Under the pieces are notes generated by a model, which worked only from the letters and a program-made list of their open reading frames with translations, did no database searches and was not told the origin of the DNA. The translations under genes and the position numbers were made by a program. From Escherichia coli (GTDB lineage Bacteria > Pseudomonadota > Gammaproteobacteria > Enterobacterales > Enterobacteriaceae), in assembly GCF_030384885.1 (NCBI RefSeq), contig NZ_CP128613.1: a stretch of DNA of 64,000 bases; one strand, given 5' to 3'. Shown here piece after piece: positions 2,772 to 56,009 of this stretch; the first letter of the stretch is position 1; each line of letters begins with the position of its first letter.

Positions 2772-3707
2772 ATGTCGCAAAATCAAGAAATTAGTAAGAA
2801 AGAACAATACAATCTGAACAAATTACAAAAACGTCTGCGTCGTAACGTGGGCGAAGCCATTGCTGACTTCAATATGATTGAAGAAGGCGATCGCATCATG
2901 GTTTGCCTCTCCGGGGGTAAAGACAGCTATACCATGCTGGAGATTCTGCGCAATTTGCAGCAAAGCGCGCCAATCAATTTTTCGCTGGTGGCTGTTAACC
3001 TCGATCAAAAGCAACCGGGCTTCCCGGAACACGTTCTGCCCGAGTATCTTGAAAAGCTGGGCATTGAGTACAAGATTGTGGAAGAGAACACTTACGGTAT
3101 CGTGAAAGAGAAGATTCCGGAGGGCAAAACCACTTGCTCACTGTGTTCTCGTCTTCGTCGCGGAATTCTTTACCGTACCGCAACGGAACTGGGAGCGACG
3201 AAGATCGCGCTGGGTCACCATCGTGACGATATCCTGCAAACGTTGTTCTTAAATATGTTCTACGGCGGCAAGATGAAAGGTATGCCTCCGAAACTGATGA
3301 GCGATGATGGCAAACATATTGTGATTCGTCCGCTGGCCTACTGCCGCGAGAAAGATATTCAGCGCTTTGCCGATGCAAAAGCGTTCCCGATTATTCCGTG
3401 CAACCTGTGCGGTTCACAACCTAACCTGCAACGTCAGGTGATTGCTGACATGTTGCGTGACTGGGATAAACGTTATCCGGGGCGTATCGAGACGATGTTC
3501 AGCGCGATGCAGAATGTGGTGCCGTCGCATCTGTGCGATACCAACCTGTTCGATTTCAAAGGCATTACCCACGGTTCTGAAGTGGTTAACGGGGGTGATC
3601 TGGCGTTTGATCGCGAAGAGATCCCTCTACAACCGGCGGGTTGGCAGCCTGAAGAAGATGAAAATCAGTTGGATGAGTTACGACTGAATGTGGTTGAAGT
3701 GAAATAA
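2772..3707 (+). CDS. ttcA: tRNA-cytidine(32) 2-sulfurtransferase TtcA
   Basis: 311 aa; PP-loop motif CLSGGKDS and two CxxC pairs (CSLC, CNLC) typical of TtcA. Confidence 0.92.
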
Positions 3708-11466: not shown

Positions 11467-12911
11467 TGCAGGAAATCTATCGTTTTATCGACGATGCGAT
11501 TGAAGCCGATCGCCAACGTTATACCGATATTGCTGATCAAATCTGGGATCATCCAGAAACACGTTTTGAAGAGTTCTGGTCAGCGGAACATCTGGCTTCG
11601 GCGCTGGAATCTGCAGGCTTCACCGTGACTCGCAACGTAGGCAATATCCCAAATGCCTTTATTGCTTCGTTTGGTCAAGACAAACCGGTTATCGCCTTGC
11701 TGGGGGAATATGACGCCCTGGCAGGTTTAAGTCAGCAAGCAGGTTGCGCGCAGCCTACATCCACGACGCCCGGTGAAAATGGTCACGGTTGCGGACACAA
11801 TTTGCTGGGAACCGCCGCTTTTGCCGCAGCAATAGCCGTCAAGAAATGGCTGGAACAATATGGGCAAGGCGGCACGGTGCGCTTTTATGGTTGTCCTGGC
11901 GAAGAAGGCGGCTCGGGAAAAACGTTCATGGTCCGCGAGGGGTTATTTGATGATGTGGATGCGGCACTCACCTGGCACCCGGAAGCCTTTGCCGGTATGT
12001 TCAATACCCGCACGCTGGCAAATATTCAAGCATCATGGCGCTTTAAAGGGATCGCAGCACATGCTGCAAATTCCCCTCATTTGGGACGCAGCGCCCTTGA
12101 TGCCGTAACGTTGATGACCACTGGCACCAACTTCCTCAACGAACATATTATTGAAAAAGCGCGCGTACACTATGCCATCACAGATAGCGGCGGGATCTCG
12201 CCCAACGTGGTCCAGGCGCAGGCAGAAGTGCTTTATCTTATCCGCGCCCCCGAAATGACCGATGTGCAGCATATTTATGATCGGGTCGCCAAAATCGCCG
12301 AAGGTGCGGCATTGATGACCGAAACCACGGTTGAATGCCGCTTTGACAAAGCCTGTTCCAGTTATCTCCCGAATCGCACCTTAGAAAATGCCATGTACCA
12401 GGCCCTATCCCATTTTGGTACTCCGGAATGGAACTGCGAAGAACTGGCTTTTGCGAAACAAATTCAGGCTACGCTCACCCCCAACGATCGGCAAAACAGT
12501 CTGAATAATATCGCCGCAACCGGTGGCGAAAACGGCAAGGCTTTTGCACTACGTCATCGTGAAACGGTACTGGCGAATGAAGTCGCTCCATATGCCGCCA
12601 CCGATAACGTGCTTGCGGCATCAACTGATGTCGGCGACGTCAGTTGGAAACTGCCTGTTGCCCAGTGTTTCAGCCCCTGTTTCGCCGTCGGTACACCGCT
12701 ACATACGTGGCAACTGGTTAGCCAGGGGCGAACGTCTATTGCTCATAAAGGAATGCTGCTGGCGGCGAAAACTATAGCAGCAACCACACTTAATCTCTTC
12801 ATTGATTCAGGGCTATTGCAAGAATGCCAACAAGAGCATCAGCAAGTTACGGACACGCAACCGTATCACTGCCCTATTCCGAAAAACGTGACACCGTCAC
12901 CTTTAAAATAA
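11466..12911 (+). CDS. abgB: p-aminobenzoyl-glutamate hydrolase subunit B (M20 family)
   Basis: 481 aa; start overlaps the abgA stop (atctgATG), indicating translational coupling. Confidence 0.9.
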   Translation: MQEIYRFIDDAIEADRQRYTDIADQIWDHPETRFEEFWSAEHLASALESAGFTVTRNVGNIPNAFIASFGQDKPVIALLGEYDALAGLSQQAGCAQPTSTTPGENGHGCGHNLLGTAAFAAAIAVKKWLEQYGQGGTVRFYGCPGEEGGSGKTFMVREGLFDDVDAALTWHPEAFAGMFNTRTLANIQASWRFKGIAAHAANSPHLGRSALDAVTLMTTGTNFLNEHIIEKARVHYAITDSGGISPNVVQAQAEVLYLIRAPEMTDVQHIYDRVAKIAEGAALMTETTVECRFDKACSSYLPNRTLENAMYQALSHFGTPEWNCEELAFAKQIQATLTPNDRQNSLNNIAATGGENGKAFALRHRETVLANEVAPYAATDNVLAASTDVGDVSWKLPVAQCFSPCFAVGTPLHTWQLVSQGRTSIAHKGMLLAAKTIAATTLNLFIDSGLLQECQQEHQQVTDTQPYHCPIPKNVTPSPLK

Positions 12912-52211: not shown

Positions 52212-53630
52212 ATGGAAACCAATATCGTTGAAGTAGAGAACTTTGTTCAGCAGTCAGAAGAGAGGCGGGGTAGCGCCTTTACGCAGGAAGTGAAACGCTA
52301 CCTGGAGCGCTACCCGAATACGCAATATGTTGATGTTTTACTTACCGATTTGAATGGTTGTTTTCGTGGAAAACGTATTCCTGTTTCAAGCCTGAAGAAG
52401 CTCGAGAAAGGGTGTTATTTCCCGGCCTCGGTGTTTGCAATGGATATTCTGGGCAACGTAGTAGAAGAAGCGGGTCTGGGTCAGGAAATGGGCGAGCCGG
52501 ATCGTACCTGTGTTCCTATTCTCGGTTCCTTAACCCCATCTGCCGCCGATCCAGAGTTTATCGGTCAGATGCTCCTGACCATGGTCGATGAAGATGGCGC
52601 TCCCTTTGACGTTGAGCCGCGGAACGTTCTTAACCGCCTGTGGCAGCAGCTGCGCCAGCGCGGATTGTTCCCGGTTGTAGCGGTAGAGCTGGAGTTCTAT
52701 TTACTGGATCGCCAGCGCGACGCTGAAGGGTATCTGCAACCGCCCTGCGCGCCCGGCACCGATGACCGCAATACACAAAGTCAGGTTTACTCAGTTGATA
52801 ACCTCAACCACTTCGCCGACGTGCTCAATGATATTGATGAGCTGGCGCAGTTACAGCTGATTCCGGCAGATGGCGCGGTCGCCGAGGCCTCGCCAGGTCA
52901 GTTTGAAATCAATCTTTACCATACCGATAACGTGCTGGAAGCTTGCGATGATGCGCTGGCACTAAAACGCCTGGTGCGTCTGATGGCAGAAAAGCATAAG
53001 ATGCACGCCACTTTTATGGCGAAGCCGTATGAAGAGCACGCGGGCAGCGGGATGCATATCCATATCAGTATGCAAAATAATCGTGGCGAGAACGTGCTTT
53101 CTGACGCGGAAGGCGAAGATTCGCCGCTGCTGAAAAAGATGCTCGCCGGGATGATTGACCTGATGCCGTCATCAATGGCGTTGCTGGCACCAAACGTGAA
53201 CTCGTATCGCCGCTTCCAGCCGGGGATGTATGTACCGACGCAGGCGTCGTGGGGCCATAACAACCGCACCGTCGCCCTGCGCATTCCCTGCGGCGATCGC
53301 CATAATCACCGCGTGGAATATCGCGTGGCGGGTGCCGATGCCAACCCGTATTTGGTGATGGCAGCGATTTTTGCCGGTATTTTGCATGGCCTTGATAACG
53401 AACTGCCATTACAGGAAGAAGTCGAAGGCAACGGGCTGGAACAGGAAGGCTTACCCTTCCCGATTCGCCAGAGCGATGCCCTGGGTGAGTTTATCGAGAA
53501 TGATCACCTGCGCCGCTATTTAGGCGAACGCTTCTGCCATGTCTATCACGCCTGTAAAAATGATGAGCTGTTGCAGTTTGAGCGCCTCATCACAGAAACA
53601 GAAATTGAGTGGATGTTGAAAAACGCGTAA
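52212..53630 (+). CDS. puuA: glutamate--putrescine ligase PuuA (glutamine synthetase family)
   Basis: 472 aa from the ATG at 52212 (METNIVEVENFV); GS-type catalytic domain. Confidence 0.9.
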   Translation: METNIVEVENFVQQSEERRGSAFTQEVKRYLERYPNTQYVDVLLTDLNGCFRGKRIPVSSLKKLEKGCYFPASVFAMDILGNVVEEAGLGQEMGEPDRTCVPILGSLTPSAADPEFIGQMLLTMVDEDGAPFDVEPRNVLNRLWQQLRQRGLFPVVAVELEFYLLDRQRDAEGYLQPPCAPGTDDRNTQSQVYSVDNLNHFADVLNDIDELAQLQLIPADGAVAEASPGQFEINLYHTDNVLEACDDALALKRLVRLMAEKHKMHATFMAKPYEEHAGSGMHIHISMQNNRGENVLSDAEGEDSPLLKKMLAGMIDLMPSSMALLAPNVNSYRRFQPGMYVPTQASWGHNNRTVALRIPCGDRHNHRVEYRVAGADANPYLVMAAIFAGILHGLDNELPLQEEVEGNGLEQEGLPFPIRQSDALGEFIENDHLRRYLGERFCHVYHACKNDELLQFERLITETEIEWMLKNA

Positions 53631-53932
53631 TACCCCTTGCGGGGTTGTTTCAGCGGCCTGAGCGGAGCCAGGCCTGACATTTGCTGGTAATCCAGACATT
53701 TCCCGGATGTCGCGTTATGGAGCGCAGGCGGCAACGGGCTTCCGTTAACGATTAAGACTGTGACGAGGAAATGAGATGATGCCGATGATTAAATCCCCGC
53801 ATGGCGAGGGAGGCTGCGTATGCGCCCCTCCTGCGACTGACTGGACTCCGCCCCCTTTGCTTCCCTTGCTAAACAGGTTTGATTTCAGGTCGATACGACC
53901 GCAAACCTTATTACGCAGGGGAGGCAGCAATT

Positions 53933-55318
53933 ATGGCTATTAATTCACCACTGAATATTGCTGCGCAACCCGGCAAAACCCGTCTGCGAAAATCACTGAA
54001 ATTGTGGCAGGTGGTGATGATGGGTCTGGCCTATCTCACGCCGATGACTGTGTTCGATACCTTTGGCATTGTTTCCGGCATTAGCGACGGTCACGTTCCG
54101 GCGTCCTATTTGCTGGCGCTGGCGGGTGTGCTGTTTACCGCGATCAGCTACGGCAAACTGGTTCGCCAGTTTCCGGAGGCCGGTTCGGCCTATACCTACG
54201 CGCAAAAGTCGATTAACCCGCACGTCGGATTTATGGTCGGCTGGTCATCGCTGCTGGATTATCTCTTTTTGCCGATGATCAACGTTTTGTTGGCGAAAAT
54301 CTATCTCTCCGCCCTCTTCCCGGAAGTGCCGCCGTGGGTGTGGGTGGTAACCTTCGTCGCCATTTTAACCGCCGCGAATCTGAAGAGCGTCAACCTGGTG
54401 GCTAACTTCAATACCCTGTTTGTGCTGGTGCAGATTTCCATCATGTTGGTGTTTATCTTCCTGGTGGTTCAGGGGCTGCATAAAGGAGAAGGCGTTGGCA
54501 CCGTCTGGTCGCTTCAGCCGTTTATCAGCGAGAACGCACACCTGATCCCGATTATTACCGGGGCGACGATTGTCTGTTTCTCGTTCCTCGGTTTCGATGC
54601 GGTGACCACGCTTTCGGAAGAGACGCCGGACGCCGCACGCGTGATCCCGAAAGCCATCTTCCTGACGGCGGTATACGGCGGCGTTATCTTTATCGCGGCG
54701 TCGTTCTTTATGCAGCTGTTCTTCCCGGATATCAGCCGCTTTAAAGATCCGGACGCCGCACTGCCGGAAATCGCACTGTACGTTGGCGGCAAGTTGTTCC
54801 AGTCGATTTTCCTCTGCACGACGTTTGTGAACACGTTAGCGTCTGGCCTGGCGTCACATGCCAGCGTGTCGCGTCTGCTGTATGTGATGGGGCGCGACAA
54901 TGTGTTTCCGGAACGCGTGTTTGGCTATGTGCACCCGAAATGGCGGACTCCGGCACTGAATGTCATTATGGTCGGGATTGTCGCGTTGTCAGCGCTGTTC
55001 TTTGATTTAGTCACCGCGACAGCATTGATTAACTTCGGTGCTCTGGTGGCGTTTACCTTCGTTAACCTGTCGGTGTTTAATCATTTCTGGCGGCGTAAAG
55101 GAATGAATAAAAGCTGGAAGGATCACTTCCACTATTTGCTGATGCCGCTGGTTGGCGCGCTGACGGTGGGTGTGCTGTGGGTTAACCTCGAGTCAACGTC
55201 ACTGACACTCGGTCTGGTATGGGCTTCATTAGGCGGCGCATATTTGTGGTATCTGATCCGCCGCTATCGCAAAGTGCCGTTGTATGATGGTGACAGAACG
55301 CCGGTGAGCGAAACGTAA
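53933..55318 (+). CDS. puuP: putrescine importer PuuP (APC family)
   Basis: 461 aa from the ATG at 53933 ([12 protein letters not shown]); 12-TM amino acid/polyamine permease. Confidence 0.88.
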
Positions 55319-55730: not shown

Positions 55731-55790
55731 GCCCGGATAAAGCGTTCACGCCGCATCCGGCTAAAAATGACACGCACTGCAGCGTGCTTT
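55731..55790. repeat. REP element between ymjA and sapA
   Basis: gcccggataaagcgttcacgccgcatccggc followed by a short hairpin. Confidence 0.7.
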
Positions 55791-56009
55791 AATGGGTTTC
55801 TCACGATCGTACCGCTCTGCTCCTCGCTAAGTTGTTCTGTGAGTTATAGTTATAGAGAAATCACGGGTACGAATGTTGAACAGATGGCGACGTCACCTGT
55901 TCAACGACCAACCACACGGCCCTCATTACGACCCCTGAACACAAACGGTAATGGCAAATGTCATTAAATATTAGTAAGATAGCCTCTTTACATAAAATCC
56001 CTTAATATT

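Follow-up and report, generated by a model that had tools for sequence, protein, structure and literature searches.

Within the 64,000-nt stretch of Escherichia coli DNA analyzed here (the window; NCBI RefSeq assembly GCF_030384885.1, contig NZ_CP128613.1), the spacer between puuA and puuP in the puuAP operon contains ymjE, a small open reading frame (ORF) that, according to the literature, is genuinely translated. Sequence comparison across genera suggests that ymjE is probably a leader ORF coupling translation to puuP, which encodes a putrescine:H+ symporter, and that it may also mask a tract resembling a Rho-loading site; we regard this reading as likely rather than secure. In the window the gene order is puuD (- strand), puuA (+), puuP (+) and ymjA. 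The features on which the argument depends are the following, with positions counted from the first letter of the window.

53765..53770, + strand: ymjE Shine-Dalgarno (SD) sequence GAGGAA, 5 nt 5' of the ATG at 53776 (direct reading).
53776..53943, + strand: ymjE ORF, 55 codons from the first ATG (ORF listing with translation).
53823..53900, + strand: C-rich, G-poor tract in ymjE, 37% C and 21% G, resembling a Rho-loading (Rho utilization, rut) site; putative rut role.
53858..53926, + strand: predicted SD-sequestering hairpin (minimum free energy (MFE) folds, RNAalifold consensus and pair counts).
53918..53924, + strand: puuP SD GGGGAGG, 8 nt 5' of the puuP ATG, with G88, G89 and G91 invariant.
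53933..53943, + strand: ymjE-puuP junction ATGGCTATTAA, with the puuP start and the ymjE stop within 11 nt, AUG-N5-UAA.
53933..55318, + strand: puuP, putrescine:H+ symporter, the proposed regulated main ORF (ORF listing and RefSeq annotation).

A first-pass annotation of this DNA had described a puuA-puuP gap of about 300 bp, in which an ATG at 53776, preceded by gaggaa, opens a frame of about 55 codons that crosses the puuP start in a different frame. This description is accurate. The puuA stop codon (TAA, 53628-53630) and the puuP ATG at 53933 leave a gap of 302 nt; the ORF at 53776..53943 (+), whose 55-aa translation begins MMPMIKSPHGEGGCVCAPP, has its SD at 53765-53770; and its stop codon (TAA, 53941-53943) lies 8 nt beyond the puuP ATG, counted from the first base, which gives an overlap of 11 nt with puuP, the latter being in the +1 frame relative to ymjE. 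The span proposed for the feature, 53771-53945, does contain the ORF, and is a few bases too wide. Position 53771 is in fact the ATG of a two-codon mini-frame, ATG-AGA-TGA (53771-53779, +), that overlaps the ymjE start codons. In other genera this mini-frame reads ATG-AAA-TGA or is a start-stop ATG-TGA, and the Klebsiella/Raoultella clade is without it.

The flagged ORF is not new: it is the already annotated E. coli small gene ymjE (K-12 b4742, at 1359177-1359341), an identity that the first-pass annotation had missed. In K-12 the gene lies between puuA and puuP on the same strand and overlaps the puuP start. Both in a 100%-identical strain and in K-12, the RefSeq coding sequence (CDS) starts from the second ATG, corresponding to window positions 53779-53943 and 54 aa. 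Given the first ATG (53776) is kept in 35 of 35 aligned loci, while nine of them have ACG, ACA, GTG or GAG in place of the second, the true start is probably at 53776, 3 nt 5' of the annotated one. The protein of the window is 98% identical to that of K-12 (I40 in the window, T40 in K-12), and its residues 2-55 match the Pfam family PF23692 'YmjE-like' with 144.8 bits (cut-off 27) and E = 6.9e-43; Pfam yields no domain besides PF23692, and NCBIfam has no model for YmjE. When positions 53600-53960 were compared by megablast with 5426 complete E. coli genomes at a minimum identity of 95%, the leader was matched in 4373 of them, and all 30 records sampled from these carry the annotation 'ymjE / YmjE family protein'. 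Full-length puuP is found in 4370 of the 5426 genomes; about 430 contain just partial matches to it, and about 630 contain none. Almost without exception, E. coli genomes with full-length puuP also have the leader, and ymjE is always linked to puuP.

Translation data, which the first-pass annotation had named as a check, exist for K-12. SPA (sequential peptide affinity)-tagged chromosomal YmjE was seen by immunoblot (VanOrsdel et al. 2018, Proteomics, PMC6001520), and ymjE, placed 'immediately upstream of puuP', is positive in tetracycline ribosome profiling (PMC6001520). YmjE is among the least abundant tagged small proteins (Weaver et al., bioRxiv 511675). The published record thus describes a K-12 small protein without a function, to which the present analysis adds a cis leader reading, a wide distribution and an upstream RNA. 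In the searchable literature we found no paper assigning YmjE a function, nor one describing a leader-ORF role, an SD hairpin, a spread beyond Escherichia or an upstream RNA; nor did anything relevant turn up on puuP in connection with riboswitches, CsrA, bicyclomycin or an upstream ORF (uORF).

The comparative evidence comes from 80 loci encoding PuuP relatives, taken from one genome per species, in which the frame was read directly. It includes about 58 uORF-bearing PuuP/PlaP loci, a 35-sequence alignment, and the ratio of nonsynonymous to synonymous changes (pN/pS) among 28 Enterobacteriaceae. A protein-database search for YmjE retrieves only Escherichia and Shigella entries. This restricted distribution is a gene-calling artefact, and the YmjE homologues missed by gene callers in many genera call for caution among annotators. 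From a conserved SD and ATG, the uORF is open for 55-75 codons at PuuP/PlaP loci of Escherichia, Pseudocitrobacter, Klebsiella, Raoultella, Enterobacter, Citrobacter, Cedecea, Trabulsiella, Lelliottia, Huaxiibacter, Buttiauxella, Pluralibacter, Shimwellia, Franconibacter, several Serratia and Hafnia, and it is also found at PlaP-like loci of Edwardsiella, Photorhabdus and Samsonia. The context of the ymjE SD, ACGAGG(A/T)A, is invariant or nearly so across all uORF-bearing loci. In Shimwellia, Edwardsiella and Photorhabdus no puuA is present upstream of the uORF, so that it is the transporter, rather than puuA, with which the uORF travels.

In a single genome the open frame is unremarkable, given 10.5% of dinucleotide-preserving interior shuffles have no in-frame stop (P = 0.105). 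Across the roughly 58 uORF-bearing loci, where the chance per sequence is about 0.12, the frame is open in every one, and it is only once such comparative data are added that the ymjE frame is judged to be far beyond chance. Between the uORF ATG and the transporter ATG, 12 distinct spacings occur, from 157 to 202 nt, and every one is 1 mod 3. The first-pass annotation had proposed conservation of the frame across Enterobacteriaceae as a check, and frame-disrupting indels in close relatives as a refutation: the frame is conserved in many genera, and the 12 lengths all keep it.

The position of the stop is also constrained. It falls at transporter positions +9..+11 in 57 of 58 loci (56 TAA and one TAG), with Samsonia having its stop 3 nt earlier. 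The stop contributes its T to transporter codon 3 as the wobble base, and this codon always ends in T (ACT 24, ATT 18, GCT 11, CAT 3, TTT 1, GAT 1), compared with a background of T-ending codons in the same genes of 9.6% for Thr and 8.5% for Ala. Among PuuP homologues without a uORF (short-spacer Serratia, Erwinia, Pantoea, Pseudomonas and Bacillus), no stop occurs at that site. Judged from these comparisons, the uORF stop position is under selection.

The region between the start and the stop is predicted to sequester the puuP ribosome-binding site. The 5' arm of the hairpin, UGCUUCCCUUGC (53858-53869, ymjE codons 28-32), pairs with the 3' arm GCAGGGGAGGCA (53915-53926), and an inner stem GGUUUG/CAAACC joins 53876-53881 to 53902-53907; in the E. 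coli MFE folds the puuP SD is buried within the 3' arm. Independent folds of about 35 lineages give the same hairpin, with the anti-SD arm inside the uORF, 67-79 nt 5' of the transporter ATG. The two arms co-vary (ACCCCC/GGGGGG, CCUCCC/GGGAGG, UUCCCC/GGGGAA), and the RNAalifold consensus recovers both stems. A model of 19 pairs has 82.9% of its cells paired, compared with at most 53% in slid controls; 10 of its pairs are changed on both sides, and its covariation score was reached by none of 500 shuffles. In comparison with dinucleotide shuffles, the 90 nt 5' of the ATG present a mean z of -2.86, and the E. coli sequence, at -35.4 kcal/mol, a z of -5.1. According to the thermodynamic rule of de Smit and van Duin, downstream initiation is negligible at such hairpin stability. 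Independent initiation at puuP should, for a hairpin of the predicted stability, be negligible.

Inside ymjE, the C-rich tract provides a second conserved property. Although the sequence drifts, 34 of 35 lineages have a window within the uORF where C exceeds G, and the mean C-G is 13.9 per 78 nt. Chunks of equal size from the puuP CDS have a mean C-G of 5.9 +/- 4.4, and 3% of them reach the uORF mean. Part of the C excess of the tract stems from the anti-SD arm.

The paralogous importer gene of K-12 presents the same arrangement. PlaP (b2014) is 63.7% identical to PuuP, and its gene is preceded by yoeI (b4678; 20 aa), located at K-12 2087052-2087114 (12053-12115, - strand, in our locus L083). 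The yoeI-plaP overlap consists of the same 11 nt, ATG-N5-TAA, in which GAC-CAT-GTC-GCA-TAA is read over ATG-TCG-CAT-AAC, and folding predicts that yoeI codons 8-12 base-pair with the start region of plaP. In complementation experiments, a yoeI-plaP construct complements and plaP alone does so poorly, yoeI being needed in cis for full complementation (2024, PMC11630599). The two leaders differ in the size of YoeI, a mere 20 codons, and in the absence of an upstream structured element from the plaP leader. In Edwardsiella, Photorhabdus and Samsonia the PlaP-type uORFs are long, at about 70-75 codons counted from the first ATG, and come with SD hairpins. Given these long uORFs and SD hairpins at PlaP-like loci, the design predates the split between PuuP and PlaP. 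An N-terminal homology between YmjE and the YoeI/PlaP-type peptides (M-x-Q-x-F-x-Y/F) was considered and rejected, since BLASTP aligns only the tail encoded by the ribosome-binding site.

Natural deletions point in the same direction. In Serratia (loci L043, L047, L054, L058 and L060) and Pantoea (L045), at about positions 2950-3010, the puuA-puuP spacer is 108-150 nt long and has neither a uORF nor an SD hairpin; the puuP ATG is found at the site of the ymjE ATG, behind a ymjE-type SD (GGTGAGGAA...ATG). The uORF plus hairpin therefore behaves as a removable relay module.

What is found at the ymjE-puuP junction corresponds to what is expected of a coupled leader ORF: an SD of its own (ACGAGGAA) with an ATG, an open frame, a stop overlapping the downstream start, and a covarying SD pairing inside the uORF. 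Among the three options of the first-pass annotation, namely a leader peptide, a uORF coupling puuP translation and a chance ORF, the second is the best supported, given the covarying SD hairpin, with its 5' arm in the ORF, and the stop 5 nt after the puuP ATG. We propose that a ribosome would initiate at the accessible ymjE ribosome-binding site, melt the SD hairpin while reading through, and terminate at the UAA 5 nt past the puuP AUG, which would leave the puuP start exposed with a ribosome on it (termination-reinitiation). Ribosomes translating ymjE would also cover the C-rich tract, and the 300-nt spacer would in this manner be shielded from Rho-dependent polarity. PuuP synthesis would then be set by initiation at ymjE, behind a structured RNA that is the likely input. 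Classical cases of coupling by ribosome-mediated unfolding are rpmI-rplT in the IF3-L35-L20 operon and the coat-replicase/lysis genes of phage MS2. As in these, ymjE-puuP would have the downstream SD paired to a translated upstream strand, with a stop and a start within a few nucleotides. It differs from them in that its upstream ORF is not a functional protein gene but a dedicated, fast-evolving leader ORF, with a conserved N-terminal peptide and a structured 5' element of its own.

Several points weigh against this coupling. We infer the dependence of puuP on ymjE, the role of Rho and the input signal, and the case for coupling, likely as we take it to be, is built from comparative anatomy rather than from mutation or experiment. 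MFE folding of the hairpin is a prediction, and the hairpin is near the shuffle level (z of -0.4 to -1.5) in Raoultella terrigena, Enterobacter sp. 10-1, Pluralibacter gergoviae, Franconibacter and Serratia. A puuP gene placed behind a vector ribosome-binding site is functional (PMC11630599), which fits a cis role for ymjE and does not discriminate. The supplements of PMC7815308 report no Term-seq 3' end in the leader, in conditions where the operon is weakly expressed, and the supplements of PMC5694010 report no crosslinking-immunoprecipitation sequencing (CLIP-seq) peak at puuA/puuP, where expression is low. Finally, the first 13 residues of YmjE are, judging from substitution patterns, selected at the amino-acid level, which pure coupling does not need. 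This selection therefore suggests that the nascent or free peptide does something more.

The selected segment is the following.

53776..53814, + strand: YmjE codons 1-13, MMPMIKSPHGEGG, the sole part under amino-acid purifying selection; consensus MMQMFKYP[HQ]GEGG.

Codons 1-13 present a pN/pS of 0.22 among the 28 Enterobacteriaceae, compared with 1.27 and 0.86 for the same nucleotides in the other two frames. For the remainder, pN/pS is 0.76 in the middle, 0.71 in the 'TPLLSRF' block and 0.79 in the C-terminal part. The N-terminal codons vary at synonymous third positions (TTC/TTT, TAT/TAC, CAG/CAA, GGC/GGA, GAG/GAA). In 'TPLLSRF' conservation extends to every codon position, suggesting that the constraint acts on the RNA. 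In the 35-sequence alignment only the N-terminus of YmjE is well conserved; this motif is well conserved only within Enterobacteriaceae, and differs in Serratia, Franconibacter and the PlaP-type uORFs. That the peptide is mostly unconstrained past residue 13 and variable in length fits a cis role. A PPP motif (CCG CCC CCT, 53848-53856, +) is present in Escherichia YmjE only; E. albertii and the commonest E. coli allele have PPPP. Through this motif ymjE, and thereby puuP, could depend on elongation factor P (EF-P) in Escherichia; as a general EF-P/polyamine sensor the motif was rejected, since it is restricted to that genus.

The conserved N-terminal block also coincides with a previously reported site. 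The AtoC chromatin-immunoprecipitation site for puuP, GCCATGCGGGGATTTAATCA, maps to 53784-53803 (- strand), i.e., ymjE codons 3-10, and was obtained with over-expressed AtoC (PMC3118216). Other genera do not keep its nucleotides and vary at third positions.

A structured RNA, highly conserved across genera, immediately precedes the ymjE SD; its parts are given below.

53650..53763, + strand: structured RNA of about 115 nt with three hairpins, directly 5' of the ymjE SD (alignments and covariation).
53655-58 / 53671-74, + strand: hairpin P1, with loop UGAGCGGAGCCA.
53683-87 / 53692-97, + strand: hairpin P2 of the structured RNA.
53702-05 / 53735-38 plus 53709-13 / 53728-32, + strand: hairpin P3, with loop GUUAUGGAGCGCAG.
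53650-53 / 53760-63, + strand: possible closing helix, less certain, with no pair changed on both sides.

The model of this RNA has 97.6% of its cells paired, compared with at most 40% in slid controls. Compensatory changes are found in P1 (GGCC/GGCC, GGUC/GACC, GGGC/GCCC) and in P2 (GCUGG/CCAGC and GCAGG/CCUGC, with GCCGG/CCGGC in Pantoea and Franconibacter), and an invariant GGAG is present in two loops, as GCGGAGC in loop 1 and A[AU]GGAGC in loop 3. A covariance-model search covering the fetched loci, K-12 plaP and the window matched every Enterobacteriaceae puuP locus searched, with 139-164 bits. Scores were 39 and 32 bits in Franconibacter and 33 bits in Pantoea, where the match lies directly 5' of the puuP ATG, and no match was obtained in Serratia, Hafnia, the PlaP-type loci, K-12 plaP or the rest of the window. 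A 4-kb scan against Rfam gave nothing at E <= 1. In a 341-nt scan, which has a smaller search space, the best Rfam match was RAGATH-36, with 15 bits against a threshold of 70 and E = 0.83. The RNA could be of CsrA type, a ligand- or protein-binding (riboswitch-like) element or a ribosome standby site, as far as its sequence and predicted structure suggest. Its position indicates that it is probably the regulatory input setting ymjE initiation. This unannotated RNA and the functional reading of ymjE are the sole novelty of the present work.

Other candidate elements around the leader were also considered. A sigma-54 -24/-12-like motif, aGGCCTGACATTTGCT (53671-53686, +), matches a predicted puuP promoter in RegulonDB-derived lists and overlaps the P1 and P2 stems; it was rejected as a general feature because it occurs only in Escherichia, Pseudocitrobacter and one Enterobacter. 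A possible pairing of the conserved AUUUCC (53698-53703) with the ymjE SD, GGAAAU, is unsupported and presents no covariation in the Klebsiella/Raoultella clade. A second hairpin within ymjE (codons ~10-20), convincing by eye in many genera, was rejected given a mean z of -0.22 against dinucleotide shuffles, the lack of an RNAalifold consensus, and a register that differs between clades. An SD/anti-SD/anti-anti-SD switch of three or four segments (GAGGGAGGC / GCCCCUCC / CUUCCC / GGGGAGG) fits on paper in E. coli and Klebsiella, is not kept in the Cedecea/Buttiauxella group, and was likewise rejected as a general mechanism. Neither intrinsic terminators nor sigma-70 promoters were found in 53400-54100. 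One further hairpin lies at the upstream end of the spacer.

53633..53644, + strand: GC hairpin CCCC-UUGC-GGGG, just 3' of the puuA stop, with no proper U-tract and not called a terminator.

Equivalent GCCCC-GNRA-GGGGC hairpins are found in other genera, with insertions resembling repetitive extragenic palindromic (REP) elements there in some genomes. The hairpin might be an mRNA-stabilizing 3' structure for puuA.

The observations on the peptide and on the upstream RNA bear on whether the leader may sense a signal. In one alternative to plain coupling, the N-terminal nascent peptide and/or the upstream RNA would sense a signal connected with polyamines, for example putrescine, spermidine or gamma-glutamyl-putrescine, and would tune ymjE translation, thus feeding back on putrescine import. 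We consider this quite unlikely as the explanation, with evidence on both sides. It would give a purpose to the confinement of amino-acid selection to residues 1-13, to a covarying RNA of about 115 nt with invariant loops, directly 5' of the ymjE SD and belonging to no Rfam family, and to the overlapping uORFs on both E. coli putrescine importers, and it has E. coli precedents in mdtU-mdtJI (spermidine) and speFL (ornithine) (PMC7815308). In these systems, mdtU-mdtJI and speFL-speF-potE, the uORFs are polyamine-responsive, uORF translation is required and Rho termination is involved (Adams et al. 2021, eLife, PMC7815308); the mdtU RNA is also predicted to pair with the main ribosome-binding site (PMC7815308). 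Like ymjE, mdtU and speFL are leader uORFs of E. coli genes for the transport or metabolism of polyamines. However, the mdtU stop is 106 nt 5' of mdtJ, whereas that of ymjE overlaps puuP. In MdtU and SpeFL it is the C-terminal part, close to the stall site, that is conserved; in YmjE it is the N-terminus, and YmjE has no sequence similarity to them. Known arrest peptides in general are conserved near the stall site or C-terminus, yet the C-terminal part of YmjE drifts (0.79); the N-terminal motif is well kept only within Enterobacteriaceae; and a ribosome stalled at codon ~13 would be short of the anti-SD arm. Similarity to SpeFL is not significant, and the proposal is made by analogy. A resemblance to SpeFL (NSFDF vs NRFDF) was rejected, with 13.9 bits and E = 0.057 by BLASTP in a single comparison with SpeFL, and FDF being Escherichia-specific. 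A broader version, in which the puuP leader would be a two-part sensor (a structured RNA gating ymjE plus an N-terminal nascent peptide) for a polyamine-pathway signal, and yoeI a shortened version of it for plaP, we regard as unlikely, if worth stating.

The remaining alternatives assign ymjE a different role or none. YmjE might be a trans-acting small protein, e.g., a modulator of PuuP or PuuA, with the overlap reflecting operon compaction. The detectable levels reached by the tagged protein (PMC6001520), the purifying selection on its 13 N-terminal residues and the constant linkage of the gene to puuP agree with this, and yet we find it improbable: about 75% of the sequence is near-neutral (pN/pS 0.71-0.79), it is between 55 and 70 residues long, its composition (Arg, Pro, Cys, Gly, Ser, Thr) mirrors constraints on the RNA, among them the anti-SD arm and the C-rich tract, it has no Pfam domain besides its own family, and its abundance is low (bioRxiv 511675). 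The gene is also lost from lineages with a functional puuP, and the SD hairpin and the fixed stop would be left unexplained. A leader repressed by CsrA, in which the loop GGAs and the ymjE SD would bind a CsrA dimer and ymjE would merely relay the repression, is very improbable in our view. GGA in hairpin loops and in the SD is typical of CsrA targets such as the glgC and pgaA leaders, and in this leader loops 1 (GCGGAGC) and 3 (A[AU]GGAGC) each carry an invariant GGA, with GAGGAA as the SD; against this, the CGGAG of loop 1 fits A(N)GGA poorly, the CLIP-seq data mentioned above show no peak, and the searchable literature contains no link between CsrA and puuP. Hardly credible, lastly, is that ymjE is a chance ORF, or the first ORF of a programmed +1 frameshift fusing YmjE to PuuP. 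The single-genome P of 0.105 would allow the former. Polyamines stimulate +1 frameshifting in prfB and antizyme, and puuP is read in the +1 frame with respect to ymjE, which would suit the latter. Nevertheless, the puuP ATG is invariant, with a conserved SD 7-9 nt before it, there is no slippery site with a prfB-like SD geometry, and the putative N-terminal extension is unconserved. The chance ORF, which the first-pass annotation had put forward as one option, is excluded by protein detection (PMC6001520) and other translation evidence in the literature, together with the conservation across genera of the frame, the SD and ATG, and the stop, despite indels and drift.

Two side observations were made. 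A sub-threshold Rfam match to naRNA4 (24.9 bits vs 59.5) at 55731-55798 (+), 3' of ymjA, is probably the REP element REPv111, tied to puuP by a transcriptome paper. The record CACSKA010000001.1 (our locus L035), titled 'Chryseobacterium sp. 18061', contains a typical Enterobacteriaceae puuA-ymjE-puuP locus with a PuuP 88% identical, and is likely a mislabelled or contaminated assembly.

If translation of ymjE is coupled to that of puuP, the long puuA-puuP spacer is explained, and PuuA and PuuP could be expressed differentially from one operon. In such a case, ymjE gains a testable function, as a relay and probably not as a usual protein-coding gene, and ymjE-puuP and yoeI-plaP would be one ancestral design. 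Should the leader be a two-part sensor, both E. coli putrescine importers would be under polyamine control via uORFs, and the locus might reveal a natural polyamine-responsive RNA. With coupling itself, both putrescine importers would join speFL and mdtU among the uORF-controlled polyamine genes.

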